Positions 1 to 11,562 of a stretch of DNA of 11,562 nucleotides are shown here, one piece after another (within the stretch, counting starts at the first letter, position 1; each line of letters opens with the position of its first letter). The notes beneath the pieces were generated by a model that was not told the DNA's origin, did no database searches, and was given only the letters and a program-made list of their open reading frames with translations. Position numbers and translations under genes: made by a program. This stretch comes from Verrucomicrobiia bacterium (GTDB lineage Bacteria; Vulcanimicrobiota; Vulcanimicrobiia; Vulcanimicrobiales; Vulcanimicrobiaceae): positions 1 through 11,562 of the forward strand of contig DATKGB010000185.1 of the NCBI GenBank assembly GCA_035544315.1. Direction: 5' to 3'.

Positions 1-54
1 GGAATAGGAGCGGAGGGCGCGCTTTGGCGTGGGCCGTCCCTTGCCGAGAAGACC

Positions 55-84
55 TTGACGATCTCGGCCTTAATCGGGTATAAC
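55..84 (+). promoter_or_regulatory. Putative sigma70-type promoter for the GntR-SPFH-hydrolase operon: TTGACG (55-60), 18-nt spacer, TATAAC (79-84)
   Basis: Read directly from the sequence. The -35 is near-consensus and the -10 is reasonable, but the spacer is 1 nt longer than optimal. It lies 38 nt upstream of the GntR ATG at 122. There is no obvious Shine-Dalgarno for the first gene, and the putative start falls inside the operator palindrome. Confidence 0.4.
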
Positions 85-86
85 CA

Positions 87-112
87 TATTGTCCTAATAC
101 ACCAGGACAATA
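87..112 (+). promoter_or_regulatory. Palindromic operator TATTGTCCT-N8-AGGACAATA directly abutting the -10 element, probably the autoregulatory site of the adjacent GntR/YtrA-like repressor
   Basis: Perfect 9-bp inverted arms (87-95 and 104-112) with an 8-nt spacer, seen in the sequence. It contains the GT...AC core typical of GntR-family operators and overlaps the predicted transcription start. Confidence 0.45.
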
Positions 113-121
113 AAGACAACA

Positions 122-505
122 ATGCAGGCAACCGATTTCCACCTCGACGGGGCGAGCGCCGTCCCGGTTTACGCGCAGCTCCGCGAGCAAGTGCTTCACG
201 GCATCGCTCGGGGCGCGCTCGTGCCCGGCCAGCAGCTTCCGACCGTCCGCGAGATCGCGATCGTCCTGCGGGTCAACCCCAACACCGTCAACCGTGCCTA
301 CATCGAACTCGAGCGTGAGGGCGTGCTGCAGACCTTCCGCGGACGCGGAACGTTTTTGGCCGAACGTCCCACCGGCGCCGACGACGGACTGCGTCGCCGC
401 CGCCTCCACGAACTGGCCGCGCGCGCGCTTGGCGAAGCTGTCGGCCTGGGTTATCCGGGTCGCGAACTGATCGATCATCTCTTGGAACTACTAGGAACGG
501 AGTAA
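122..505 (+). CDS. GntR-family transcriptional regulator, short YtrA-like form (127 aa): N-terminal winged HTH with only a minimal C-terminal domain
   Basis: ATG at 122, TAA at 503-505. The translation VYAQLREQVLHGIARGALVPGQQLPTVREIAIVLRVNPNTVNRAYIELEREGVLQTFRGRGTFLA is a textbook GntR wHTH. The short length matches the YtrA subfamily. It is the first gene of the + strand operon, 7 nt before the next start. Confidence 0.85.
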   Translation: MQATDFHLDGASAVPVYAQLREQVLHGIARGALVPGQQLPTVREIAIVLRVNPNTVNRAYIELEREGVLQTFRGRGTFLAERPTGADDGLRRRRLHELAARALGEAVGLGYPGRELIDHLLELLGTE

Positions 506-512
506 CTTCAAA

Positions 513-1442
513 ATGCCATCACTCCTACTCACCAACGCCGCTACCGTTCGCGCGTCGCGCACCGGCCGCGGACGTATCAATCCTATCGCTGCGTTCTTGG
601 CCGTCGCCATCGGTGCGATCGGCGTCAACAGAGGACTACACCTTCAAAGTACACCGCTGATCGTCGCAAGCGTCATCGTCGCCACCCTCGTCTTGGTGAG
701 CATTCAAATGGCCAACCCGTGGGAAAAGGCAGTCGTGCTACGCGCGGGACGGTTCCGCAAACTCGCGGGGCCCGGATTATTCGGGATGATTCCCATCGTC
801 GATAGCGTTGCGATGTGGATCGATCAACGCGTGCAGACCTCAACCTTTAGCGCCGAGGAGACGCTGACCAAAGACACCGTCCCGGTCGACGTCGATGCGG
901 TTTTGTTCTGGGTCGTGTGGGATGCGCAAAAAGCCGCGCTCGAAGTGACTTCTTACGCGCAAGCAATCGAGTGGGCCGCTCAAACCGCGCTGCGCGATAT
1001 CATCGGCACGACCACACTGGCAGACCTGCTCTCCAACCGGCAGATAGCCGACGGCTATCTGCAAAAAGCGATCGACGCGCGGACCACGCCTTGGGGAATC
1101 ACCGTCAACTCCGTCGAGATTCGCGACATCAAGATTCCCGATTCGCTTCAAGACGCGATGTCTCGACAAGCCCAAGCCGAACGCGAAAGCCAAGCCCGCA
1201 CGATCCTGGGCAACGCGGAATGTTTGATCGCGCAATCGTTCGTCGAAGCCGCCAAGGCCTACCAGAATAACCCGGTCGCGCTGCATCTGCGCGCGATGAA
1301 TATGCTCTACGAAGGGTTGAAGGAAAAAGGGGCCATGATCATCGTACCCAGCACCGCCGTCGAAACCATGGGCTTAGGCACCATCGGCGGCTTGGCCGCA
1401 CTTTCCCCGCAAGTCGTACCCCAAGGAGGCCCGAATGCCTAA
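513..1442 (+). CDS. SPFH / band-7 (stomatin/prohibitin-like) membrane protein with an N-terminal TM anchor, 309 aa
   Basis: ATG at 513 preceded by AGGAACGGAG (493-502). Hydrophobic N-terminus IAAFLAVAIGAIGV and IVASVIVATLVLV. The SPFH core WEKAVVLRAGRFRKLAGPGLFGMIPIVDSV...IDQRVQT is present, and the C-terminal ALHLRAMNMLYEGLKEKGAMIIVPS is typical of prokaryotic stomatins. The stop TAA at 1440-1442 overlaps the next gene. Confidence 0.85.
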   Translation: MPSLLLTNAATVRASRTGRGRINPIAAFLAVAIGAIGVNRGLHLQSTPLIVASVIVATLVLVSIQMANPWEKAVVLRAGRFRKLAGPGLFGMIPIVDSVAMWIDQRVQTSTFSAEETLTKDTVPVDVDAVLFWVVWDAQKAALEVTSYAQAIEWAAQTALRDIIGTTTLADLLSNRQIADGYLQKAIDARTTPWGITVNSVEIRDIKIPDSLQDAMSRQAQAERESQARTILGNAECLIAQSFVEAAKAYQNNPVALHLRAMNMLYEGLKEKGAMIIVPSTAVETMGLGTIGGLAALSPQVVPQGGPNA

Positions 1443-2985
1443 CCGCTTCGCCCTGGCAACGCTCGCACTGTGCGTCGCCGCTATCGGCGCAACGCCCGCC
1501 CCACCCGCCCGTCCGCCCGACGGCACCTACACCTATACCGTTTCGGGCGTCCCGGGCCTTACCCAAACGACGATCGTCGTTCGCAGCAGCGCTTCGGGCT
1601 TCAGCGTCATCGAGAACGTCGTCCTGCCTAGCGGTGCTGCCGTATCGACGCAAACCGACTACGACACGCAAACCCTGCTGCCCACGCATTATCGCGTCTC
1701 TCAAAACGGTAAGACCACCGATATCGTATTTGCGAACGGCACTGCGACGCTCCTCGAGCCGCCGACCGCGCGTTCAAAACCTGCGGGCACGAAAGGCTTA
1801 ACGATCGGTGAGGGACTGTTCGCCTTGCCCATGATGCTCCCGGCGATCGTTGCATCTGCCGGAGGGCAACCCATCGCCGATTTGGCGATCAACGGCGGCT
1901 TGACCGTCGTCACTCTCACACCGACGAGCGCGGCCGACGCGCGACCTGCCGGCGTGCCCCAAAACGACCTGGAAAGCGCCATCGGCTACCCGAACGGGCT
2001 ACGCGAAACGTTTTGGTCGAACCCGACTACGTATGCCGTCGATCGAATCGGCCTGGGCACGGCCGCCGCCCTCACGCTCAACAACTACAGCACCGCAACG
2101 ACCGCCGTAACGCCCGCACCGGCCGCGGTTCTGCCGACGCCTTACCCGACGGCGCAGCCGCACTTCAGCAGCCGCGACGTTTCGTTTGCGTCGAGCGGCG
2201 GCGCAGCGATTGCCGGAACGCTGACGATTCCCAACGATCCCAAAGGCCGACGGATGCCGGCTTTCATCTTCATACACGGGAGCGGAGCGGGCACGCGCGA
2301 CGCCGCCGTCCCTGCAAATCCAACGTTTCTGGATTTGAGTAACGCGCTGTCGAACAATGGCGTCATCGTACTTCGTTACGACAAACGCGCCATTGGGAAG
2401 AGCACCGGCGAGGGAACCGAGGATTGGCATCCCCTTGGCGACGATGCGCGCGCCGCTATCGCGTTTCTCAAACGCCAACCCTGGGTCGATCCACATCGGA
2501 TCTTTATTCTCGGCCATAGTGAAGGCGGCGAAATCGCGCCGTTGATCGCCCCCTCGATTCCCAATCTCGCCGGCATCGTGCTGATGGCCGGCCCGGCGAT
2601 CTCGCTTGATCGGATCATTGGAAAACAGTTGCCCGGCGACAAGAACGCCGCGTATCGCACGGTGCTCTTGAAAGCGTTCTCGTCGTATGCCGGCCTGGAT
2701 CCGGCCGTCTACATCACCAAAGTTAACGTGCCGATCCTCGTGTTGCAAGGGGGCCGCGACATTCAAGTCTTGGCGAGCGATCTTCCGCATCTCGTCGATG
2801 CAGCCCGCGCCGCGCACCGCAAGATTACCGTGAAGGTGCTACTTGAAGACGATCACTTGTTCTTGCGTCTGCCGGCAAGCGCCGTTAGCAACGCTTCGGA
2901 ATATTTCGTCCCGGCGCCGCTCGATCCGCGCGTTCCGCAGACGATCTTGCAGTGGCTGCGCTCGCTGCCTACTTCTGCGCGGTGA
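1435..2985 (+). CDS. Secreted two-domain protein: signal peptide, ~230-aa N-terminal domain of unknown family, Pro/Thr/Ala-rich linker, and C-terminal alpha/beta-hydrolase (serine hydrolase with GHSEGG nucleophile elbow), 516 aa
   Basis: ATG at 1435 with strong SD AAGGAGG (1423-1429), overlapping the SPFH stop by 8 nt (ATGCCTAA). Signal-like N-terminus MPNRFALATLALCVAAIGATPAPPA. The hydrolase part contains FIFIHGSGAG, ILGHSEGGEIAPLIA (GxSxG), later Asp-rich turns and LLEDDHLF (candidate catalytic His). TGA at 2983-2985. Confidence 0.75.
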   Translation: MPNRFALATLALCVAAIGATPAPPARPPDGTYTYTVSGVPGLTQTTIVVRSSASGFSVIENVVLPSGAAVSTQTDYDTQTLLPTHYRVSQNGKTTDIVFANGTATLLEPPTARSKPAGTKGLTIGEGLFALPMMLPAIVASAGGQPIADLAINGGLTVVTLTPTSAADARPAGVPQNDLESAIGYPNGLRETFWSNPTTYAVDRIGLGTAAALTLNNYSTATTAVTPAPAAVLPTPYPTAQPHFSSRDVSFASSGGAAIAGTLTIPNDPKGRRMPAFIFIHGSGAGTRDAAVPANPTFLDLSNALSNNGVIVLRYDKRAIGKSTGEGTEDWHPLGDDARAAIAFLKRQPWVDPHRIFILGHSEGGEIAPLIAPSIPNLAGIVLMAGPAISLDRIIGKQLPGDKNAAYRTVLLKAFSSYAGLDPAVYITKVNVPILVLQGGRDIQVLASDLPHLVDAARAAHRKITVKVLLEDDHLFLRLPASAVSNASEYFVPAPLDPRVPQTILQWLRSLPTSAR

Positions 2986-3424
2986 CCTGTGCGACGGTCA
3001 CCGGGCTGGCCTTGTTGCCCCACGCCGAGCGAATATAGGTGATCGCCGACGCGATGTCGCCCGCGCTCAAGACCGAACCCCACTTGGGCATCTCGCCGTT
3101 GTAGGTTTGCCCGGCGATGACGATCTTGCCGATCAAGCCGTCCTTGACGATGTGAATCACACGCATCGGATCGCCCACGACCACCGGATTGCCCGCCAAC
3201 GGCGGAAATGCCCCGGGCGAACCCGCGCCGTTGGAACCGTGACAGCTCGAACAGTTGGTATCGAACACTTTGGCGCCGTCGCTGGCCGAGGTGGCCGTAG
3301 CGGCCATCGCCGTCGAGGCCACCGCAGCGCTGCGGCTGGCTGAGGAGGCGGCGTGGCCGCCGCCCGAACATGCCGCCAACGCGAGCGAGCCCGCGGCCGC
3401 CAAGAGTGCTAAGGATCGATGCAT
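2969..3424 (-). CDS. Class I c-type cytochrome, lipoprotein (151 aa): lipobox signal, Ala/Ser-rich linker, single CXXCH haem site and Met sixth ligand
   Basis: ATG at 3424-3422 with SD AAGGGG 9 nt upstream. N-terminus MHRSLALLAAAGSLALAAC-SGGG (lipobox LAAC). Haem motif CSSCHG; the distal GEMPKWG is typical of c551/c6-type cytochromes. TAG at 2971-2969. It lies 15 nt downstream of the SEDS gene on the same strand, and its 3' end overlaps the convergent hydrolase gene by 17 bp. Confidence 0.8.
   Translation of the reverse strand: MHRSLALLAAAGSLALAACSGGGHAASSASRSAAVASTAMAATATSASDGAKVFDTNCSSCHGSNGAGSPGAFPPLAGNPVVVGDPMRVIHIVKDGLIGKIVIAGQTYNGEMPKWGSVLSAGDIASAITYIRSAWGNKASPVTVAQVTAQK
2981..3002 (+). 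terminator. Hairpin GGTGACC-tgtgcgac-GGTCACC spanning the hydrolase stop codon, inside the 3' end of the convergent cytochrome c gene; possible 3'-end or stabilising hairpin for the + operon
   Basis: Perfect 7-bp stem with an 8-nt loop, seen in the sequence. The downstream tract gggcuggccuuguugcc is only weakly U-rich, so this is not a canonical intrinsic terminator. Confidence 0.2.
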
Positions 3425-3439
3425 GACGTAATGCCCCTT

Positions 3440-4648
3440 TTACGACGAGCGCGCGCGTGGGCGCGAACTGAGCGCCCAAGCCAGTGAAATCAAGAGTACG
3501 TTAGCGACCAGCGAACTCCCACCGTAGGAGATAAACGGCAACGTGATGCCGGTCAACGGGAAGAGGCCGATCACCCCGCCGACGATGATGACGACTTGAA
3601 AGCCCAACGTCGCCGCTAAGCCGACCGCAACGAGCTTGGCGTACAGATCGGGTTGCTCGGCACCGACGGCAAAGATGCGGCGGACGATTACCAAGAACAG
3701 CACCAGCACGATCAGCGCGCCCAACAACCCGAACTCTTCGGAGTACGCGGCATAGACGTAGTCGGTTGCGACGTCGGGAATGAACAACGGATGCCCGAGC
3801 CGATAGCCGGTCCCGAACAGACCTCCCGCGGCAAGCGAATAGTAGCCCTGCGCCGCTTGGTAACCCGCGCCGTGCGGATCGGCAAATGGATTCTGCCAAA
3901 CGCTCAAACGCGCCTGAACGTACGAGAAATGCCGCATCGCCCAGGTAGCGGCCAGCGCGAAAACGCCAAAGCCGCCCGCGACGATATCGATCCGCCGCGT
4001 CGCAACGTAGAGCATCGCTGCAAAGGTTGCCAACAGCAGCGTAGCCATGCCCAAATCGCGCTGCAGCACGAGTATCGCCATCGATGCGCCCCATCCCAAG
4101 AACAGCGGCCCGAGGTATTTGAGATTGCTCCGAATCGACCAGGCGCGGGCTTTGGCGATCACGTCGGCGGTTTCGGCAAGGTATGCGGCTAAGAAAAAGA
4201 CGATGAACAATTTGATCAGCTCGACCGGTTCGTACTGGACCGGGCCCAAGCGGATCCACAAACGCGCGCCGTTAACTTCCTGACCGAAGACCAGCAGCAG
4301 CAAGAATAGCACGAACGACGCCAGCACCCAAATGTATTTATACGCAGCCAAGCGTCGGAAACGCGCCAGCGCCGGCCCCAGCGCGATCGCCAACACCAGC
4401 GACACCAACAGCCAATCCAATTGCTTGCGTGCCAAATCGAGCGATATGCGCGCGACGACCAGCAATCCGATCGTGCATAAGACCACCGCCAATGCGGGCA
4501 ACACGTCGTCGCGCGTGACGTCGAGCGGCGCGAGGCCGACCCATAGGAGCGCGCCGACAGCCAGCAGCCACAACAGCCATGGCGCCCCCAATGCCCCGGG
4601 CGGCGCGAACGACAGCGCGAATCCTGCGATCGCCAGCGCGATCGCCAT
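3440..4648 (-). CDS. SEDS-family peptidoglycan glycosyltransferase (FtsW/RodA/SpoVE). The genomic context with FHA and PP2C genes suggests a RodA-like role
   Basis: Multi-TM protein with hallmark SEDS segments LGPVQYEPVELIKLFIVFFLAAY, NPFADPHGAGYQAAQGYYSLAAGGLFGTGYRLGHP, IPDVATDYVYAAYSEEFGLLGA (catalytic Asp region) and FISYGGSSLVANVLLISLAWALS. TAA at 3442-3440. The track ORF runs to 4900, but its first 84 codons are Arg-rich read-through overlapping the upstream PP2C gene. The first ATG after the PP2C stop is at 4648 (checked: cat at 4646-4648), and a TTG at 4672 is an alternative. Confidence 0.8.
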   Translation of the reverse strand: MAIALAIAGFALSFAPPGALGAPWLLWLLAVGALLWVGLAPLDVTRDDVLPALAVVLCTIGLLVVARISLDLARKQLDWLLVSLVLAIALGPALARFRRLAAYKYIWVLASFVLFLLLLVFGQEVNGARLWIRLGPVQYEPVELIKLFIVFFLAAYLAETADVIAKARAWSIRSNLKYLGPLFLGWGASMAILVLQRDLGMATLLLATFAAMLYVATRRIDIVAGGFGVFALAATWAMRHFSYVQARLSVWQNPFADPHGAGYQAAQGYYSLAAGGLFGTGYRLGHPLFIPDVATDYVYAAYSEEFGLLGALIVLVLFLVIVRRIFAVGAEQPDLYAKLVAVGLAATLGFQVVIIVGGVIGLFPLTGITLPFISYGGSSLVANVLLISLAWALSSRPRARSS

Positions 4649-4674
4649 CGGCGTCAGGCGCCGTGCCAGCAACC

Positions 4675-5412
4675 CTACCGAGTCAAACAAAATGCCAGCG
4701 CGCAGAAGATTGCCGCCGCAACGACGACGCTCGGACGTGGCCACGTTCGCGAGTGCGCGGCCGGCTCCGGCGACGGTACGTCGTCGGTACCGAACCGAAC
4801 GATCGCAACGCACTGGCTTGACGATGTCAACGGCGCTCGGCCCGCGAGCGCGACTGCCAGTCGCCGTCGCCCTTCGTCGTCGCGCAGACGACGCGTGCAC
4901 AGCGCGAGCACGTCACCATCGTCGACGGTGAAACGGCACATCGACGCGTCCACCTGCAACTGCGTACCGATCGAGCGGGATAGGATCCGCCCGTCCTCGA
5001 TCGCGTCGTCCTGCGTGAGCGCGACGACGTATCCGGCTCGCAGGAGATAGGCCGCCGTTCCGCCGGCGTGCGCGACGAACGCGCGGCGCCCGCTCACCAG
5101 CACGATCGTCAACGAACTCCCGGCGGTAACGTAATCTTCGTGCGACGCGCTCCGGGCGAACAACTCGCCGTTGACGCGCGCGACGATGGCCAGCAGCTCC
5201 TCGATCTCCGTGTGCCCTCGGCGCAGCCCGCGCATAAAGCGTTCGGTGCGGCCGCGACGCTGGCATTCGGCGCGCAGGCGTTCGAGCGTCGCGCGCGCGG
5301 CCGGTATGCCGTCGATGACTCCAAAGCCCGCGGCGACGGCAAAAATTTCGGTCGCGTCGTCCAAGCGGACGCATAACGAGGAAGACGGATCGCTTGAAAC
5401 CGCAACGCTCAC
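4675..5412 (-). CDS. PP2C/PPM-like Ser/Thr phosphatase homologue (PstP/PrpC-like) with a C-terminal TM anchor; catalytic metal-binding motifs appear degenerate (possible pseudophosphatase)
   Basis: GTG start at 5412-5410 overlapping the upstream FHA gene stop (GTGA). The core GSSLTIVLVSGRRAFVAHAGGTAAYLLRAGYVVALTQDDA parallels the PP2C GTT..VAHIGDSRxYLLRDG...T.DHS block. The C-terminal hydrophobic segment SVVVAAAIFCALAFCL matches the membrane anchor of PstP. Canonical GDSR reads GGTA and CSDGL reads CTRRL. TAG at 4677-4675. Confidence 0.65.
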   Translation of the reverse strand: MSVAVSSDPSSSLCVRLDDATEIFAVAAGFGVIDGIPAARATLERLRAECQRRGRTERFMRGLRRGHTEIEELLAIVARVNGELFARSASHEDYVTAGSSLTIVLVSGRRAFVAHAGGTAAYLLRAGYVVALTQDDAIEDGRILSRSIGTQLQVDASMCRFTVDDGDVLALCTRRLRDDEGRRRLAVALAGRAPLTSSSQCVAIVRFGTDDVPSPEPAAHSRTWPRPSVVVAAAIFCALAFCLTR

Positions 5413-5822
5413 GGCAGCTTCCCAACGTAGCTAATGCGCGTGGTGCCCACATCGATCGTATCGTTGGGTCGCACCTCGATCGCACCATCCAAGCGGCGTC
5501 CGTTAAGAAACGTGCCGTTACTGCTGCCGGCGTCGCTCACATACACGATGCCGTGCTGGGCTTCGAAGCGGGCGTGCAACCGGCTCACTTGGGGATCCAA
5601 GACCATGACGTTCGCGCTGCTCGAGCGTCCGACAACCATCGGACACACGCCTTCGTAGCGCTGCATCGCACCCGCGTGCGCGACCTCGAGCGCGATACGC
5701 ACGGGAAGCGACGGCCCGGTATCGCCGGCGCGATGGGCGCGCGGGCGCGCCGCGACGACGGCAAAGATGGCCAGCGCAGCCAGAATCTCGACCGAACCGG
5801 CGCGCAAACCCGCCTCGTTCAC
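5409..5822 (-). CDS. FHA-domain membrane protein (FhaB/FipA-like): N-terminal TM helix plus C-terminal FHA domain, 137 aa
   Basis: GTG start at 5822-5820 overlapping the upstream gene stop (GTGA). TM segment VEILAALAIFAVVAA. FHA hallmarks MVVGRSSSANVMVLDPQVSRLHARF, SSNGTFLNGRRL and NDTIDVGTTRISY. TGA at 5411-5409. Confidence 0.85.
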   Translation of the reverse strand: MNEAGLRAGSVEILAALAIFAVVAARPRAHRAGDTGPSLPVRIALEVAHAGAMQRYEGVCPMVVGRSSSANVMVLDPQVSRLHARFEAQHGIVYVSDAGSSNGTFLNGRRLDGAIEVRPNDTIDVGTTRISYVGKLP

Positions 5823-6520
5823 GAGCCGGCTTCCAGGCGCATTTCGGTTTTGCCGAACGTCACCAGGTCGCCCGGCGCGAGCCGGCGCGTTTCGACGCGC
5901 TCGCCGTTAACGAACGTGCCGTTGGTCGAGCCCAGGTCGTGGACGATCGGACTACCCGAATCGACGTCGATCACCGCATGGCGTCGCGATACCGATGGAT
6001 CGACCAAGAAGAGTTCGGAGTCGTCGCTGCGGCCCACGTTCAGCGAGCCGTCGATCGTATACACACCGTAGGCCGGAATACCTTTGACCATGCGCAGTTG
6101 AAAGCGCGCCGGTACGGAGTCCGCGCGAGGAAATTCGATGGGATCGGTGTGCACGAGCGTGCCGGGTTCGATCTCGACGGCGCCGGTCGGGATCGACGCG
6201 CGCGGCTGCATGCGGATTTCGACGCCGCCGTCGGAAAATGCGATGTCGACGCGTGACGCCATGTCGACGAGCAGTTGCGACCACTCGCGTTCGAGGTACG
6301 CGCCGTGGGGGGCCAACCGTTCGAGATCGTCGGGATTGACGTACACGACATACTTTCCCGGAGCGACCAGCCCATCTTCGCCGCCGCGCGTGGCCGCCTC
6401 CATGGTCGCGACGAGTTTGCGCGCGATCTGAGCCGGCTCGAGATCGCTCGGAAACGTCTTGGCAAACGCGCGCTCGACAAACGCAGCGCAGGCCGATTCA
6501 ATCCGGGAAAGCCAGCTCAC
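5819..6520 (-). CDS. FhaA-like protein: N-terminal DUF3662-type domain plus C-terminal FHA domain (~233 aa)
   Basis: The N-terminal SWLSRIESACAAFVERAFAKTFPSDLEPAQIARKLVATME matches the FhaA N-terminal domain. The C-terminal FHA reads LNVGRSDDSELFLVDPSVSRRHAVIDVD...VHDLGSTNGTFVNGERV...GDLVTFGKTEMRL. Start re-called to GTG at 6520-6518, which overlaps the rsmB stop as GTGA. The track start at 6703 adds 61 Arg-rich residues that overlap rsmB coding. Confidence 0.8.
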   Translation of the reverse strand: MSWLSRIESACAAFVERAFAKTFPSDLEPAQIARKLVATMEAATRGGEDGLVAPGKYVVYVNPDDLERLAPHGAYLEREWSQLLVDMASRVDIAFSDGGVEIRMQPRASIPTGAVEIEPGTLVHTDPIEFPRADSVPARFQLRMVKGIPAYGVYTIDGSLNVGRSDDSELFLVDPSVSRRHAVIDVDSGSPIVHDLGSTNGTFVNGERVETRRLAPGDLVTFGKTEMRLEAGS

Positions 6521-7848
6521 ATGTGTCGCTCCAGCCGCGCAACGTAGAAACCGTCTCGTCCTTGCAGCCCGGGCGGCACCAGGACGTCGCCCTGGCGCGT
6601 CCCAAATGGCCCAAAGACCGCGGGAATCAGGCCGCGAGAGAAATCGTGCGTTCGAAGGAACGCGTCGACGACCTCCACGGATTCGCGCGGATCGGTCGAG
6701 CACACCGCATAGACCAGCACGCCGCCCGGATGTACGTGAGGCGCGACCGCCGCCAGCATTGCCGCTTGCGTCGCAGCCAATCGCGCGCCGTCATCCGCGC
6801 GTTTGCGCCAGCGAGCCTCGGGATGCCGCCCGACCACGCCGACGCCCGAGCACGGGGCGTCGACTAGGACCCGATCGAAGCGCTGCTGCGCCGGTACGAT
6901 CTCGCCGGTAGCATCGCCGACGACGATCGACGCCGCCGCACCCGCCGACGCCAGGCGCTCCTCCAACAGTTTTGCCTTGCGCGCGTCTTGCTCCAGGCAC
7001 CAGAGCGTACCCTCGCCTTTCATGCGCGCGGCGAGTTGCAGCGCCTTATTGCCGCGCCCGCTGGCGACGTCGAGGACCGTTTCGGTCGGCTGCGGGTTGA
7101 GGATTGCGACCGGCATGGCTGCCGATTCGCCTTGAAAGAACCAGGCGGCGTCGGCCGCGCGTTCGCGCGCACTGTGCGAGCCGCCGCCCACGATCAGACT
7201 CTCTTCGACGTACTCCGAGCGCCGGACGTCGCTCCCCGACGCGCGCAAACCGCTCTCGACCTCGTCGACCTCAGCGCGTAGCCGATTGACGGTGATCGCA
7301 CTGCGCGCCGGCAAGTTGACCGCAACGCAAATGGCTTCGAGCGAATCGGGAAAGGCCGCGCGCCATTGACGCACCAGCCACGTCGGCAGCGAACAGGCGA
7401 CGCTTAAGTATTCGTCGGCATCGTCGAAGTCTTCGGGCGCGGGCGGCAACGGACGATCCCGCAGGAACGAGCGCAGCACGGCGTTGACCAGCCCCGCGAC
7501 GCCTCTGTGTCCGTACTTTTTAGCAAGGTTGACATACTCGAAGACCGTCGCGTGTTCGTCGGCTTGCGTAAAGACGATCTCGTAGATGCCGAGCCGAACG
7601 ATCTCGGCGATCGTCGGCGGCAGCGGTTGGGGACGATCCCCGATAAAGGCACGCGCGTACCAGTCCAGCGTTCGGCGCATCTTGATCGATCCGTAGGCTA
7701 ACTCGGTTGCAAACGCGCGATCGCGCGGTTCGAGCGAGGCTTTGCGCAAACGATAGTCGAGCGCTTCTTGCGCACCACGTTCGGCGCTGGCTGCCTCGGC
7801 CGGAAAAACGTCGCGCACGACTTGCAACGCAACGTCGCGCGCGTTCAC
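6517..7848 (-). CDS. rsmB: 16S rRNA (cytosine967-C5)-methyltransferase RsmB/Sun: NusB-like N-terminal domain plus SAM-dependent methyltransferase domain, 443 aa
   Basis: N-terminal RDVALQVVRDVF...DRAFATELAYGSIKMRRTLDWY (NusB-like). Methyltransferase motifs LDVASGRGNKALQLA, DRVLVDAPCSGVGVVGRHPEARW and VYAVCS. GTG start at 7848-7846 overlaps the fmt stop (GTGA). TGA at 6519-6517. Confidence 0.9.
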   Translation of the reverse strand: MNARDVALQVVRDVFPAEAASAERGAQEALDYRLRKASLEPRDRAFATELAYGSIKMRRTLDWYARAFIGDRPQPLPPTIAEIVRLGIYEIVFTQADEHATVFEYVNLAKKYGHRGVAGLVNAVLRSFLRDRPLPPAPEDFDDADEYLSVACSLPTWLVRQWRAAFPDSLEAICVAVNLPARSAITVNRLRAEVDEVESGLRASGSDVRRSEYVEESLIVGGGSHSARERAADAAWFFQGESAAMPVAILNPQPTETVLDVASGRGNKALQLAARMKGEGTLWCLEQDARKAKLLEERLASAGAAASIVVGDATGEIVPAQQRFDRVLVDAPCSGVGVVGRHPEARWRKRADDGARLAATQAAMLAAVAPHVHPGGVLVYAVCSTDPRESVEVVDAFLRTHDFSRGLIPAVFGPFGTRQGDVLVPPGLQGRDGFYVARLERHM

Positions 7849-8765
7849 GTCGCGTTCCCGTTCCGCTCGCGCGATCGAACGTATTCCGCACCGCCGGCAG
7901 GGCCGCGATTGGGCGCGATCACTTCATCGATGGCCACAACGCCGCTTCCGGACTGCACCAACGCGACCCGATCGCGGACGCCCAAGAGCGTCCCGGGCGG
8001 CGCGGGGCTGACGATGTCGGTCGCAATTGCCGCCCGAACGACTTTCACCGATTCGCCCAGCAGGGTTGCGCGCGCGCACGGCTGCGGCGAATATGCGCGC
8101 ACGTGGTCGACGATTTGCTTGGCCGTCCAGGTCCAGGCGATTTCGAGATCGGCTTTGCCGATCGGTCGGGTGGCGCTGGATTCGCCCGCTTGCGGCGTTC
8201 GCGGCAACGAGCCTTGCCGTGCCAAGTCGAACGCATCGCCCAGCAAGCGCGCGCCGTGCTCGGCCAGCCGATCGTGCAAGGAACCGTAATCGTCGTCCGG
8301 AGCAATCGCGATGCGCTCTTGGAGCACCACGTCGCCGGTATCCATGCCGGCATCCATCAGCATGATCGAAACGCCCGTCGCCGCATCGCCGTTTCGCAAC
8401 GCCGTTTGAATCGGCGTCGCGCCTCGGTACTTTGGCAACAGCGACGGGTGAACGTTGAGCGCCCCTACCTTCGGAAAGTCGAGCAATTCTTGCGGAAGGA
8501 TCTTGCCGTACGACGCCAACGCGAACGCATCGAAGGCTTCTCCTGCAAGTTCGGACGCGAATGGTTTGAGACGTTGGGGTTCGTAGACGCGCAGTCCAAG
8601 TTCGAGCGCCGTAGCCTTAACCGGCGACGGAGTTAATTTCTGCCCGCGGCCGGCGGGTCGATCCGGTTGCGTAACGACCGCAACGACCTGCGTGCGTTCC
8701 GCTGCAACGCGCAAGCTGGGCACCGCGAAGGTGCTGGTGCCAAAAAAGAGCGTCCGCAAAAGCAT
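7845..8765 (-). CDS. fmt: Methionyl-tRNA formyltransferase (306 aa)
   Basis: The translation from the internal ATG at 8765-8763 (checked: cat at 8763-8765) reads MLLRTLFFGTSTFAVPSL...VVTQPDRPAGRGQKL...GALNVHPSLLPKYRGATPIQ, a classic Fmt. The track ORF start at 9188 is a 141-codon read-through into def. The ATG is 1 nt after the def stop (TAG-C-ATG). TGA at 7847-7845. Confidence 0.9.
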   Translation of the reverse strand: MLLRTLFFGTSTFAVPSLRVAAERTQVVAVVTQPDRPAGRGQKLTPSPVKATALELGLRVYEPQRLKPFASELAGEAFDAFALASYGKILPQELLDFPKVGALNVHPSLLPKYRGATPIQTALRNGDAATGVSIMLMDAGMDTGDVVLQERIAIAPDDDYGSLHDRLAEHGARLLGDAFDLARQGSLPRTPQAGESSATRPIGKADLEIAWTWTAKQIVDHVRAYSPQPCARATLLGESVKVVRAAIATDIVSPAPPGTLLGVRDRVALVQSGSGVVAIDEVIAPNRGPAGGAEYVRSRERNGNAT

Positions 8766-8766
8766 G

Positions 8767-9318
8767 CTACGTTGCCGAGGCGGCTTCCTCGACGGAGCGC
8801 TCGCGCTCTTCTCGTGCGGCATCTTCGGCTTCTTCTTCGGCCAGCGTTCGAAGGTTGCGAACTTTGTCCACATACAGCACGCCGTTGAGATGGTCGATCT
8901 CGTGCTGAATGCAGTGTGCGAACAATCCGTCGCCTTCCAAGCGAATCTTCTCGCCGAAACGATCCAGTCCGCTGATGGCGATGTGCGTGAAACGTAATGA
9001 TTCGCCAACGTATCCAGGAACCGACAGACAACCATCGCGGCGCCATTCCTCGCCTTGCGTGAGTTCCAGCTTGGGATTGACCACGACGAACGGGCCGTGC
9101 GTTTCGTCGTCATCGTGCAAATCGATCGTGAAGATCCGTTTGGAAACGTTGACCTGTGGCGCGGCCAGACCGATGCCCGGCGCGTCATACATCGTCTCGA
9201 ACATATCGTCGATCAATTGCTGAATCAGCGGATCGCGCAGTTCCTCAAGATGCACCTTCTTGGCGATCTTTCGCAACGTCGCATGACCATCGGCAATAAT
9301 CTCGCGCACATAAGGCAT
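8767..9318 (-). CDS. def: Peptide deformylase (about 183 aa; start uncertain between ATG 9318 and ATG 9360)
   Basis: Motifs GIGLAAPQV, DGCLSVPGY (EGCLS-type) and QHEIDHLNG are present. The N-terminal MPYVREIIADGHATLRKIAKKV resembles the canonical Def N-terminus, so ATG at 9318 is preferred. ATG at 9360 (MAGSNLATVEAWRP...) would add 14 residues. The track start at 9549 runs into the inverted-repeat element and is rejected. TAG at 8769-8767. Confidence 0.85.
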   Translation of the reverse strand: MPYVREIIADGHATLRKIAKKVHLEELRDPLIQQLIDDMFETMYDAPGIGLAAPQVNVSKRIFTIDLHDDDETHGPFVVVNPKLELTQGEEWRRDGCLSVPGYVGESLRFTHIAISGLDRFGEKIRLEGDGLFAHCIQHEIDHLNGVLYVDKVRNLRTLAEEEAEDAAREERERSVEEAASAT

Positions 9319-9395
9319 GGGCCGCCAGGCTTCGACGGTGGCGAGATTTGACCCCGCCATTCTTGTCGGCCTGAGCTTTGTCGAAGGGGCGGCCG

Positions 9396-9568
9396 CTCGC
9401 GAACCCCGCTGATCGTGGGGGTCGAATGTGGGACTTCCGATTTTTTTGAAAGCGCCCGGAGGGCGTATTCCTTTGGCCGTTTCAAAAAAACGGCGGAGTA
9501 GGAGCGGCCATGGATGGCCGCGACGAGCGTCCCCACATTCGACCCCCACGATCAGCGGGGTTCGCGAG
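9396..9568. repeat. 173-bp palindromic element: perfect 37-bp inverted repeats (9396-9432 and 9532-9568) flanking a 99-bp, comparatively AT-rich, hairpin-dense core; candidate MITE-like element or long structured regulatory/terminator region between hslU and def
   Basis: Arm CTCGCGAACCCCGCTGATCGTGGGGGTCGAATGTGGG equals the reverse complement of 9532-9568 with no mismatch. The core holds mirrored T7...A7 runs (9441-9451 versus 9480-9490) and hairpins gccgttt-caaaa-aaacggc (9476-9494), cgccc-gga-gggcg (9453-9465) and gcggccat-gg-atggccgc (9503-9520). Two track ORFs (9225..9536 - and 9428..9664 +) translate the identical peptide HSTPTISGVRE, because each reads one arm. Confidence 0.7.
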
Positions 9569-9587
9569 ATCGACGATTGCCGGGTAG

Positions 9588-11014
<1,427 letters not shown>

Positions 11015-11015
<1 letters not shown>

Positions 11016-11545
11016 TACTCCAAGGTCTCCACGACGATATCGGCGTTGGTATAGATGCAGATCTCGCTGGCGATCTCCAGCGATTTGCGGGCGATCGCTT
11101 CGGCTCCCAAATCGGTGTTGCGCATCAGCGCGGCCGCTGCGGCCTGGGCGTACGCGCCGCCCGAACCGATCGCGGCAATCGGTTCGTCGGGTTCGATCAC
11201 GTCGCCGGTTCCCGAAAGTACGAAGAGATGCTCGGGCGTACCGACGATCAGCAACGCCTCGAGACGGCGCAGCGCGCGGTCCTGTCGCCAATCCTTGGCC
11301 AATTCGACCGCGGCACGTGTGAGATCTTTGAACTCGTTGAACTTCTTCTCGAACTTCTCGAGCAGCGTGATGCCGTCGGCGGCCGAACCGGCAAAGCCGG
11401 CCAAGACCTTTCCGGCGGCCAAGCGCCGCACTTTGCGCGCGCCATGCTTCATCACGATCTTATCCAGGGTAACCTGCCCATCGCCGGCGATTGCCAGCAT
11501 CCCGTTTCGACGGACGGCCAAAATGGTGGTCGAACGAATTTTCAT
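11015..11545 (-). CDS. hslV: ATP-dependent protease subunit HslV (ClpQ/CodW-like), 176 aa, with a short N-terminal extension (MKIRS) before the conserved Thr-Thr
   Basis: [42 protein letters not shown]...[17 protein letters not shown]...GSGGAYA are canonical HslV motifs. ATG at 11545-11543, and there is no alternative in-frame start directly before the TT codons. TAA at 11017-11015. The whole gene lies inside the window. Confidence 0.9.
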
Positions 11546-11562
11546 CGAATCGTTGGCGCGGA

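Follow-up and report, generated by a model that had tools for sequence, protein, structure and literature searches.

Phylum-wide conservation of a def-fmt-rsmB-fhaA-fhaB-PP2C-SEDS gene order in Eremiobacterota and recurrent inactivation of its PP2C-fold protein

We analyzed an 11,562-nt stretch of DNA (contig DATKGB010000185.1 of assembly GCA_035544315.1, positions 1 to 11,562; hereafter, the window) in which the minus-strand genes def, fmt and rsmB are followed directly by genes for two FHA-domain proteins (fhaA-like and fhaB/fipA-like), a PP2C-like protein and a SEDS peptidoglycan polymerase. This arrangement is a phylum-wide rule in Eremiobacterota (WPS-2; NCBI name Vulcanimicrobiota) and not a local rearrangement: the order was identical in all 161 related loci, i.e., in 80 species-representative Eremiobacterota genomes and 81 deeper-branching loci. 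The string is characterized by its conservation across the phylum, by the lack of a kinase or penicillin-binding protein (PBP) gene at the locus, and by a phosphatase that has been recurrently inactivated yet retained.

Related loci were collected into two sets. The genome set came from a scan with an FhaA alignment using one genome per GTDB species; 80 of 178 relatives were kept, nearly all of them labelled Eremiobacterota. The divergent set came from a scan of metagenome contigs with a subset of seven FhaA sequences (the 18-sequence alignment was too diverse) and comprised 80–81 loci, with FhaA proteins 33–48% identical to two known FhaA lineages, that of the window and that of locus L007. 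Synteny in the relatives was called by tblastn with the ten proteins of the window. In the genome set, the order hslV-hslU-def-fmt-rsmB-fhaA-fhaB-PP2C-SEDS-cytochrome c was found in all 88 loci. The complete ten-gene string was present in 60 of these; the others were clipped by contig ends or had no PP2C gene. Every locus of the divergent set followed the order (hslVU)-def-fmt-rsmB-fhaA-fhaB-(PP2C)-SEDS, with rsmB always immediately upstream of fhaA. Five independent look-ups of Pfam-labelled neighborhoods returned the same gene order, and the fhaA, fhaB and SEDS genes were missing from no locus.

Within the matches covered, the arrangement is specific to the Eremiobacterota lineage. Homologues of the PP2C-like and FhaA proteins were named Candidatus Baltobacteraceae, Eremiobacteraeota or Vulcanimicrobiota, and the window itself matched metagenome contigs only. 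A homology search with the N-terminal domain of FhaA returned only short or partial Eremiobacterota proteins. The full-length FhaA profile yielded 1560 matches, and among the matches listed 120 of 120 were from Eremiobacterota. A search of representatives clustered at 50% identity was dominated by multi-FHA proteins, leaving about 22 usable full-length FhaA clusters with uninformative names. A first-pass annotation of the window, made from its sequence, had described an unusual, possibly lineage-specific rewiring. The lineage specificity held up, but an order invariant in every related locus is not unusual. Common as the order is in its host phylum, our literature search found no paper describing this Eremiobacterota arrangement. 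The same annotation had called the string a hybrid of a Firmicutes-type def-fmt-rsmB block and an actinobacterial-type fhaA-fhaB-PP2C-SEDS block, which is a fair description.

Eremiobacterota-type loci were also seen in metagenome-assembled genomes labelled Alphaproteobacteria, Acidiferrales/Acidoferrum, Babeliales or Verrucomicrobiae (L034, L035, L039, L040, L045, L065, L084 and P0130), with FhaA proteins 56–61% identical to that of the window. Wrong labels or wrong binning probably account for these cases.

The PP2C-like gene of the window (4675–5412, minus strand, 245 aa) had been treated as encoding a phosphatase. This reading was not upheld, as the metal-binding aspartates are absent and the family cutoffs are missed. 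The protein scored 18.4 bits against Pfam PP2C (cutoff 20.3), 16.9 bits against PP2C_2 (cutoff 24) and 45 bits against NCBIfam Stp1 (cutoff 230). When it was aligned to true PP2Cs and Mycobacterium tuberculosis PstP, the residues at the positions of PstP D38, D118, D191 and D229 were A, G, R and Q, i.e., all four metal-binding aspartates were lost, and the flap segment was shortened. None of the four aspartates was present in 64 of 66 genome-set relatives. Among 67 genome-set sequences, position 38 was occupied by R (56), E (4), A (3), S (3) or H (1), position 118 by G (44), A (11), S (9), T (2) or D (1), and position 191 mostly by H (37) or R (24), with D in one. The replacement pattern followed sub-clades, being A/G/R/Q in the window and R/G/H/E in most others. 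Arg was found at position 192 in 60 of the 67 sequences, and the phosphate-binding Arg20 was kept in 58.

Loss of the metal site has not been accompanied by loss of the fold or of selection. The AlphaFold model of the window protein had a pLDDT of 84.7 and a pTM of 0.77, and its top Foldseek matches were Stp1, PppA, PstP and tPphA, all with a probability of 1.0 and a TM-score of about 0.55–0.61. The model places a tail-anchor-like hydrophobic helix at residues 227–244, and a C-terminal hydrophobic segment was found in 98 of 110 members of the PP2C-like family. The median ratio of nonsynonymous to synonymous substitution rates (dN/dS) was 0.144 over 26 independent pairs, compared with 0.15 (rsmB), 0.137 (fmt), 0.09 (fhaA) and 0.07 (SEDS); pairs with about 40% amino-acid identity were saturated and were not interpreted. 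As this median is like that of rsmB, the gene is not a pseudogene. Judged from these features, the PP2C-like protein of the window is a catalytically dead PP2C-fold pseudophosphatase that is membrane-anchored and under purifying selection.

We also considered whether the protein is still an enzyme whose active site, rebuilt around His, Glu and Arg after loss of the Asp residues, serves phosphatase activity or some other hydrolysis. The strong purifying selection fits this idea, and the His at 191 and Glu at 229 of most members of the dead clade could in principle bind metal. Nevertheless, it is very improbable: the replacements vary between sub-clades, unlike a conserved new catalytic center, D118 has become Gly, Ala or Ser, the flap is shortened, and the gene has been deleted in 15 loci.

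Two further observations concern the naming and surroundings of PP2C-like proteins. JGI names several of the dead proteins (P0015, P0020 and P0022–P0025) 'serine/threonine protein phosphatase PrpC', which their missing metal-binding residues contradict; the dead-PP2C result corrects this automated annotation. The nearest PP2Cs outside the family (P0035 and P0036) were set aside, as their gene contexts are unrelated to the cluster.

The state of the PP2C gene varied across the phylum. The window belongs to a Baltobacterales/Baltobacteraceae branch. A divergent, Vulcanimicrobiaceae-type branch (one contig carries the label Vulcanimicrobiaceae) has an active-type PP2C at the same position, about 300 aa long and with a full DDGDDGDN-type signature. 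These active-type proteins scored 42–45 bits against Pfam PP2C_2 (cutoff 24), whereas the dead forms failed Pfam. A total of 126 loci could be scored: 25 with an active-type PP2C, 86 with a dead one and 15 with no PP2C gene. In the 15 deleted loci, fhaB lies directly beside the SEDS gene with 30–110 nt between them. Locus L174, counted among the dead, has a truncated and frameshifted dead-PP2C remnant (L174:5202-5624) with about 110 recognizable residues in a 567-nt fhaB-SEDS gap, and looks like an intermediate toward the clean deletions of the 15 other loci. Loci L119 and L130 had at first been taken as dead from wrong-frame shadow open reading frames (ORFs); extraction in the tblastn frame placed both among the active type. 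Irreversible parsimony on a neighbor-joining tree of rsmB, FhaA and FhaB gave about three inactivations and about seven deletions. The inactivations fall in a large Baltobacterales clade, in L007 and in the L128/L129/L133 group, and the substitution pattern differs in each.

The fhaA-like gene (5819–6520, minus strand) encodes a 233-aa protein matching Pfam FhaA_N with 66.9 bits (cutoff 25) and FHA with 74.1 bits (cutoff 20.7), with a short linker between the two domains; in Eremiobacterota, FhaA ranged from 216 to 240 aa and diverged down to about 35% identity. The fhaB/fipA-like gene (5409–5822, minus strand) encodes a 137-aa protein with an N-terminal membrane-anchor-like segment and a C-terminal FHA domain (Pfam FHA 61.6 bits). 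It reached 53.9 bits against NCBIfam FhaB_Rv0019c (NF049868; cutoff 125), where the FHA part alone matched. A hydrophobic 17-mer within the first 55 residues of FhaB was found in 137 of 137 loci. In both FHA domains, conservation of the residues that bind phosphothreonine (GR, SxxH and NG) was at least 98% over 82 genomes, those with a dead or absent PP2C among them.

The SEDS gene (3440–4648, minus strand) encodes a 402-aa protein of the RodA/FtsW family (Pfam FTSW_RODA_SPOVE, 236.5 bits), for which the closest match of known structure is Thermus RodA (6BAR, E = 3e-39). It scored 237 bits against NCBIfam FtsW and 220 bits against RodA, both below the cutoffs of about 337, so that NCBIfam assigns it to neither RodA nor FtsW. 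The D255 equivalent (the D in ATDYVY) and the Glu/Lys pair of ELxKL are kept, and the catalytic Asp was present in 89 of 89 sequences with a motif match. By these sequence criteria the readers (FhaA and FhaB) and the SEDS polymerase look functional.

No partner kinase or transpeptidase was found at the locus, in agreement with the first-pass annotation. Pfam detected no protein kinase or transpeptidase domain in the gene products of the window. Likewise, no kinase or class B PBP appeared in the Pfam-labelled gene tables of longer contigs from the same organism, and no Pkinase or class B PBP domain in those of relatives. The Hanks-kinase motif HRDxKxxN...DFG had no occurrence in 2.17 Mb of locus flanks (1.43 Mb and 0.74 Mb). 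The gene after SEDS was never a PBP in any locus where downstream genes were checked: in the window-type branch it is a cytochrome c gene, and in ten active-branch loci the genes after SEDS encoded phosphoesterase, GH15 or CarboxypepD_reg proteins or, in three cases, proteins with no Pfam match.

One PBP gene did occur farther away. In 23 genome-set loci, a convergent gene 4–7 kb downstream of the SEDS gene encodes a class A PBP that carries a BiPBP_C domain. It adjoins a very large (about 1870 aa) alpha-2-macroglobulin gene in the three labelled loci (L089:13840-16510, L090:9606-12276 and L006:14416-20744 for the class A PBP/alpha-2-macroglobulin feature). As a convergent gene beside alpha-2-macroglobulin that resembles a pbpC-A2M pair, it was rejected as the missing partner of SEDS. 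A regular expression for transpeptidase motifs (SxxK...SxN...KTG) was set aside because it missed its positive control, the class A PBP known in L006.

The first-pass annotation had also held that the phospho-donor for the FHA domains must be encoded elsewhere. The conservation of the phosphothreonine-binding residues supports this: because both FHA domains keep them, the genome probably encodes a kinase outside this locus. The opposite view is that phosphothreonine signaling has collapsed in the lineage of the window, leaving the FHA proteins as phospho-independent, constitutive scaffolds for SEDS. Such a relic could account for the lack of a kinase within 10 kb in any of the 161 loci and for a phosphatase that was inactivated about three times and deleted about seven times. 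We nonetheless find it quite unlikely, as conservation of the binding Arg, Ser, His and Asn at the level observed would be unexpected without binding of a phospho-ligand. Moreover, the active-PP2C branch also has no nearby kinase, so an unlinked kinase does not imply absence of phosphorylation.

We then examined how tightly the string is joined to the genes upstream of it. Within the window, def (peptide deformylase; 8767–9318, minus strand) scored 160 bits against Pfam Pep_deformylase and 154.5 bits against NCBIfam TIGR00079, over cutoff; it ends in a TAG stop at 8767 and has an alternative upstream start, the ATG at 9360, which was used by gene callers and by the first-pass annotation. The fmt gene (methionyl-tRNA formyltransferase; 7845–8765, minus strand) matched NCBIfam TIGR00460 with 227 bits (cutoff 201.5). 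The product of rsmB (16S rRNA m5C967 methyltransferase; 6517–7848, minus strand) combines a NusB-like domain and a methyltransferase domain (Pfam Methyltr_RsmB-F, NusB and RsmF-B_ferredox) and scored 267–302 bits against NCBIfam rsmB models, slightly below their equivalog cutoffs. Pfam and NCBIfam thus agreed with the gene content and order initially proposed, def-fmt-rsmB-fhaA-fhaB-PP2C-like-SEDS-cytochrome c.

GTGA start/stop overlaps had been noted at 7848 (fmt-rsmB), 6520 (rsmB-fhaA), 5822 (fhaA-fhaB) and 5412 (fhaB-PP2C), and all four are in the sequence with correct frames. The first spans 7848–7845, with rsmB beginning with GTG at 7848, and at 6520 the TGA stop of rsmB overlaps the GTG start of fhaA. 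The accompanying statement that every junction is such an overlap applies to these four but not to the PP2C-SEDS gap of 26 nt or the SEDS-cytochrome c gap of 15 nt; the 26-nt spacer follows from an ATG start of SEDS at 4648 and is the commonest spacer length among relatives. The def and fmt genes are 1 nt apart. Elsewhere in the window, hslV and hslU overlap by 1 nt (TAATG, the ATG of hslU lying on the TAA of hslV) and a plus-strand Band7/hydrolase pair overlaps by 8 nt. Four-base overlaps are thus not exceptional here, and tight junctions are typical of the genome of the window. Among relatives, the sequence allows a 4-nt overlap of fmt with rsmB in 66 of 79 loci, of fhaA with fhaB in 65 of 81, and of fhaB with PP2C in 17 of 72, another 47 of which show a 10-nt overlap. 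Between rsmB and fhaA, a 4-nt overlap was possible in 41 of 81 loci, the rest mostly having gaps of 10–24 nt. The 'obligate co-translation' read from the overlaps was therefore too strong, since they are the usual junction style here and about half of the relatives have a gap between rsmB and fhaA. The cluster genes are, on this sequence evidence, very likely co-transcribed and partly translationally coupled.

The gaps between rsmB and fhaA also fit a different explanation, namely that the contiguity is merely historical: an inherited gene order with internal promoters and no functional link to translation maturation. Promoters within coding sequence are possible, and in the homologous mycobacterial cluster the kinase genes are transcribed from start sites of their own (PMC6554272). 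Yet fhaA directly follows rsmB wherever both are present, even in very divergent lineages, and no terminator-like signal lies between them. We therefore regard a purely historical contiguity as unlikely.

The string is the Eremiobacterota version of an FhaA-FhaB-PP2C-RodA wall-growth module joined to def-fmt-rsmB. We hold the following reading of how it works with moderate confidence. Co-transcription with def-fmt-rsmB would tie expression of FhaA, FhaB, PP2C and SEDS to growth. By analogy with mycobacteria, the cytoplasmic FhaA and the membrane-anchored FhaB would bind envelope proteins that a Ser/Thr kinase, encoded outside the locus, has marked with phosphothreonine. The two readers would recruit or restrain the RodA-type SEDS polymerase, whose catalytic residues are intact and whose partner would be a class B PBP with its gene likewise outside the locus. 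The marks would be erased by the active PP2C in the Vulcanimicrobiaceae-type branch, and in the branch of the window the dead PP2C would most likely serve as a non-catalytic membrane adaptor in the same complex. The rebuilt enzyme, the phospho-independent relic and the historical contiguity are all less well supported than this mechanism.

Several points weigh against it. The FhaA/FhaB/pseudo-PP2C/SEDS complex is putative and modelled on mycobacterial homologues. Co-transcription is predicted from overlaps and conserved adjacency alone, and a scan of the window for promoter and terminator consensus sequences found nothing above the expectation from shuffled sequence and was uninformative. The search for a kinase and class B PBP covered the 10-kb flanks of the loci, and the partners elsewhere are presumed. 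The pseudo-PP2C is dispensable in some lineages, given its repeated deletion (15 loci). The events were counted on a rough neighbor-joining tree with midpoint rooting. Finally, the PstP reference sequence is one that we take to be correct; parts of it match a printed alignment, and the motif positions fit the presumed D38/D118/D191/D229.

The remaining features of the window lie at the two ends of the string. The cytochrome c gene (2969–3424, minus strand; Pfam Cytochrome_CBB3 and Cytochrom_C) is the final minus-strand gene and encodes a monoheme protein that carries a CSSCH motif behind a lipoprotein-like signal (LAAC); CxxCH was present in 85 of 85 relatives. A 4-nt overlap between SEDS and cytochrome c was possible in 21 of 69 loci. 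The gene follows SEDS only in the branch with a dead or absent PP2C and was not found there in the active-PP2C branch. The notion of a cluster closed by cytochrome c consequently applies to the branch of the window and not elsewhere in the phylum. Beyond it, plus-strand genes for GntR, Band7 and alpha/beta hydrolase proteins converge on the cluster. Rfam and tRNA scans of the window gave no matches.

At the other end, hslV (11015–11545, minus strand; Pfam Proteasome, 82 bits) and hslU (9588–11015, minus strand; Pfam AAA_2) precede def, as hslVU does in essentially all sufficiently long loci. The hslU-def spacer of the window holds a 173-nt element (9396–9568) with perfect 37-nt inverted-repeat arms (9396–9432 and 9532–9568) and, in its interior, an imperfect 16-nt repeat bordered by A7/T7 runs. 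Among 174 loci it was confined to the organism of the window (the window and L089); in a close relative, L004, the spacer is just about 52 nt. The element may be an insertion resembling a miniature inverted-repeat transposable element, or a strong hairpin or terminator that separates hslVU transcription from the def operon. In most relatives, hslU and def are separated by an additional ORF (about 170 aa, without a Pfam match; e.g., L006:5544-6056), and the two genes were more than 400 nt apart in 66 of 72 loci; this ORF is missing from the window and from L004. Upstream of hslVU, topA and a GIDA-family (trmFO-like) gene were seen in L004:1-3008 and L006:1-3073, giving topA-trmFO-hslV-hslU. This order resembles the Firmicutes order topA-gid-codV-clpQ-clpY and is a second Firmicutes-like stretch of gene order in the phylum.

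The FHA-PP2C-RodA-PbpA-PknB locus is the textbook case of control of actinobacterial cell-wall growth by Ser/Thr phosphorylation. In Eremiobacterota, a whole phylum with few cultivated members, the readers stay together with the polymerase, the locus has no kinase or PBP, and the phosphatase has repeatedly been inactivated or deleted, with selection maintaining the dead protein. Its loci provide a natural series for studying the roles of the PP2C fold beyond catalysis, the functional core of the module (FhaA, FhaB and SEDS were never lost), and the relation of Firmicutes-type to actinobacterial-type arrangements. A more speculative view, which we hold to be a long shot, is that the dead PP2C, once an eraser, now reads or protects phosphate marks without hydrolysing them, so that it would form with FhaA and FhaB an eraser-less module of three readers controlling SEDS, and that the gene order preserves an ancestral operon of Terrabacteria. 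Cited for the reader role are the arginine-lined former metal pocket (Arg at position 38 in 56 of the 67 sequences or else at 191/192, and at 192 in 60) and the retained phosphate-binding Arg20. If the ancestral order were real, the Firmicutes rsmB-rlmN-prpC-prkC and the actinobacterial fhaA...pknB arrangements would both derive from a def-fmt-rsmB-fhaA-fhaB-PP2C-SEDS ancestor.

Finally, we compared the string with known systems. The actinobacterial cluster is located near oriC, and M. tuberculosis FhaA is about 527 aa with a long linker that Eremiobacterota FhaA does not have. The genes of that cluster are fhaA-fhaB-pstP-rodA-pbpA-pknA-pknB (PMC6554272, PMC11898655), and the functional roles of FhaA, FhaB, PstP and RodA have been described in mycobacteria (PMC3989709, PMC6554272, PMC11898655). 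In M. tuberculosis (Rv0020c-Rv0014c), the first four genes have the same order and architectures as in the Eremiobacterota string: FhaA_N plus FHA, a small FHA protein with a membrane anchor, a PP2C likewise anchored in the membrane, and a SEDS protein of the RodA type. Unlike the actinobacterial cluster, the Eremiobacterota loci have no pbpA, pknA or pknB and are joined to def-fmt-rsmB, and unlike pstP, the PP2C is dead or absent in the branch of the window. The pstP-pknB link, reported to be universal in Actinobacteria and Firmicutes (PMC6554272), is broken in the Eremiobacterota string. A strict division between Firmicutes and Actinobacteria, on which the first-pass annotation relied, is too simple, as a minority of Firmicutes are reported to carry a pknB-fhaA cluster as well (PMC6554272).

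The Bacillus subtilis operon defA-fmt-yloM(rsmB)-yloN(rlmN)-prpC-prkC-cpgA-rpe (PMC8359813) likewise has def-fmt-rsmB followed by a same-strand PP2C-family gene downstream. It differs from the Eremiobacterota string, in which two FHA genes replace rlmN, SEDS replaces the PASTA kinase prkC, and cpgA and rpe are absent. For the dead PP2C, the closest parallels are the PP2C-fold pseudophosphatases: the C-terminal domain of Escherichia coli RssB and the animal proteins TAB1 and PHLPP2 (PMC6546054, PMC12002173). Like these proteins, whose role is non-catalytic, the Eremiobacterota protein persists with its PP2C fold but without the residues that bind metal. Our literature search found no PP2C pseudophosphatase described in a cell-wall cluster; unlike RssB, TAB1 and PHLPP2, the Eremiobacterota protein is stand-alone, tail-anchored and part of a cell-wall operon. 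Active orthologues are still found in its sister branch within the phylum, which allows the transition to be traced gene for gene.

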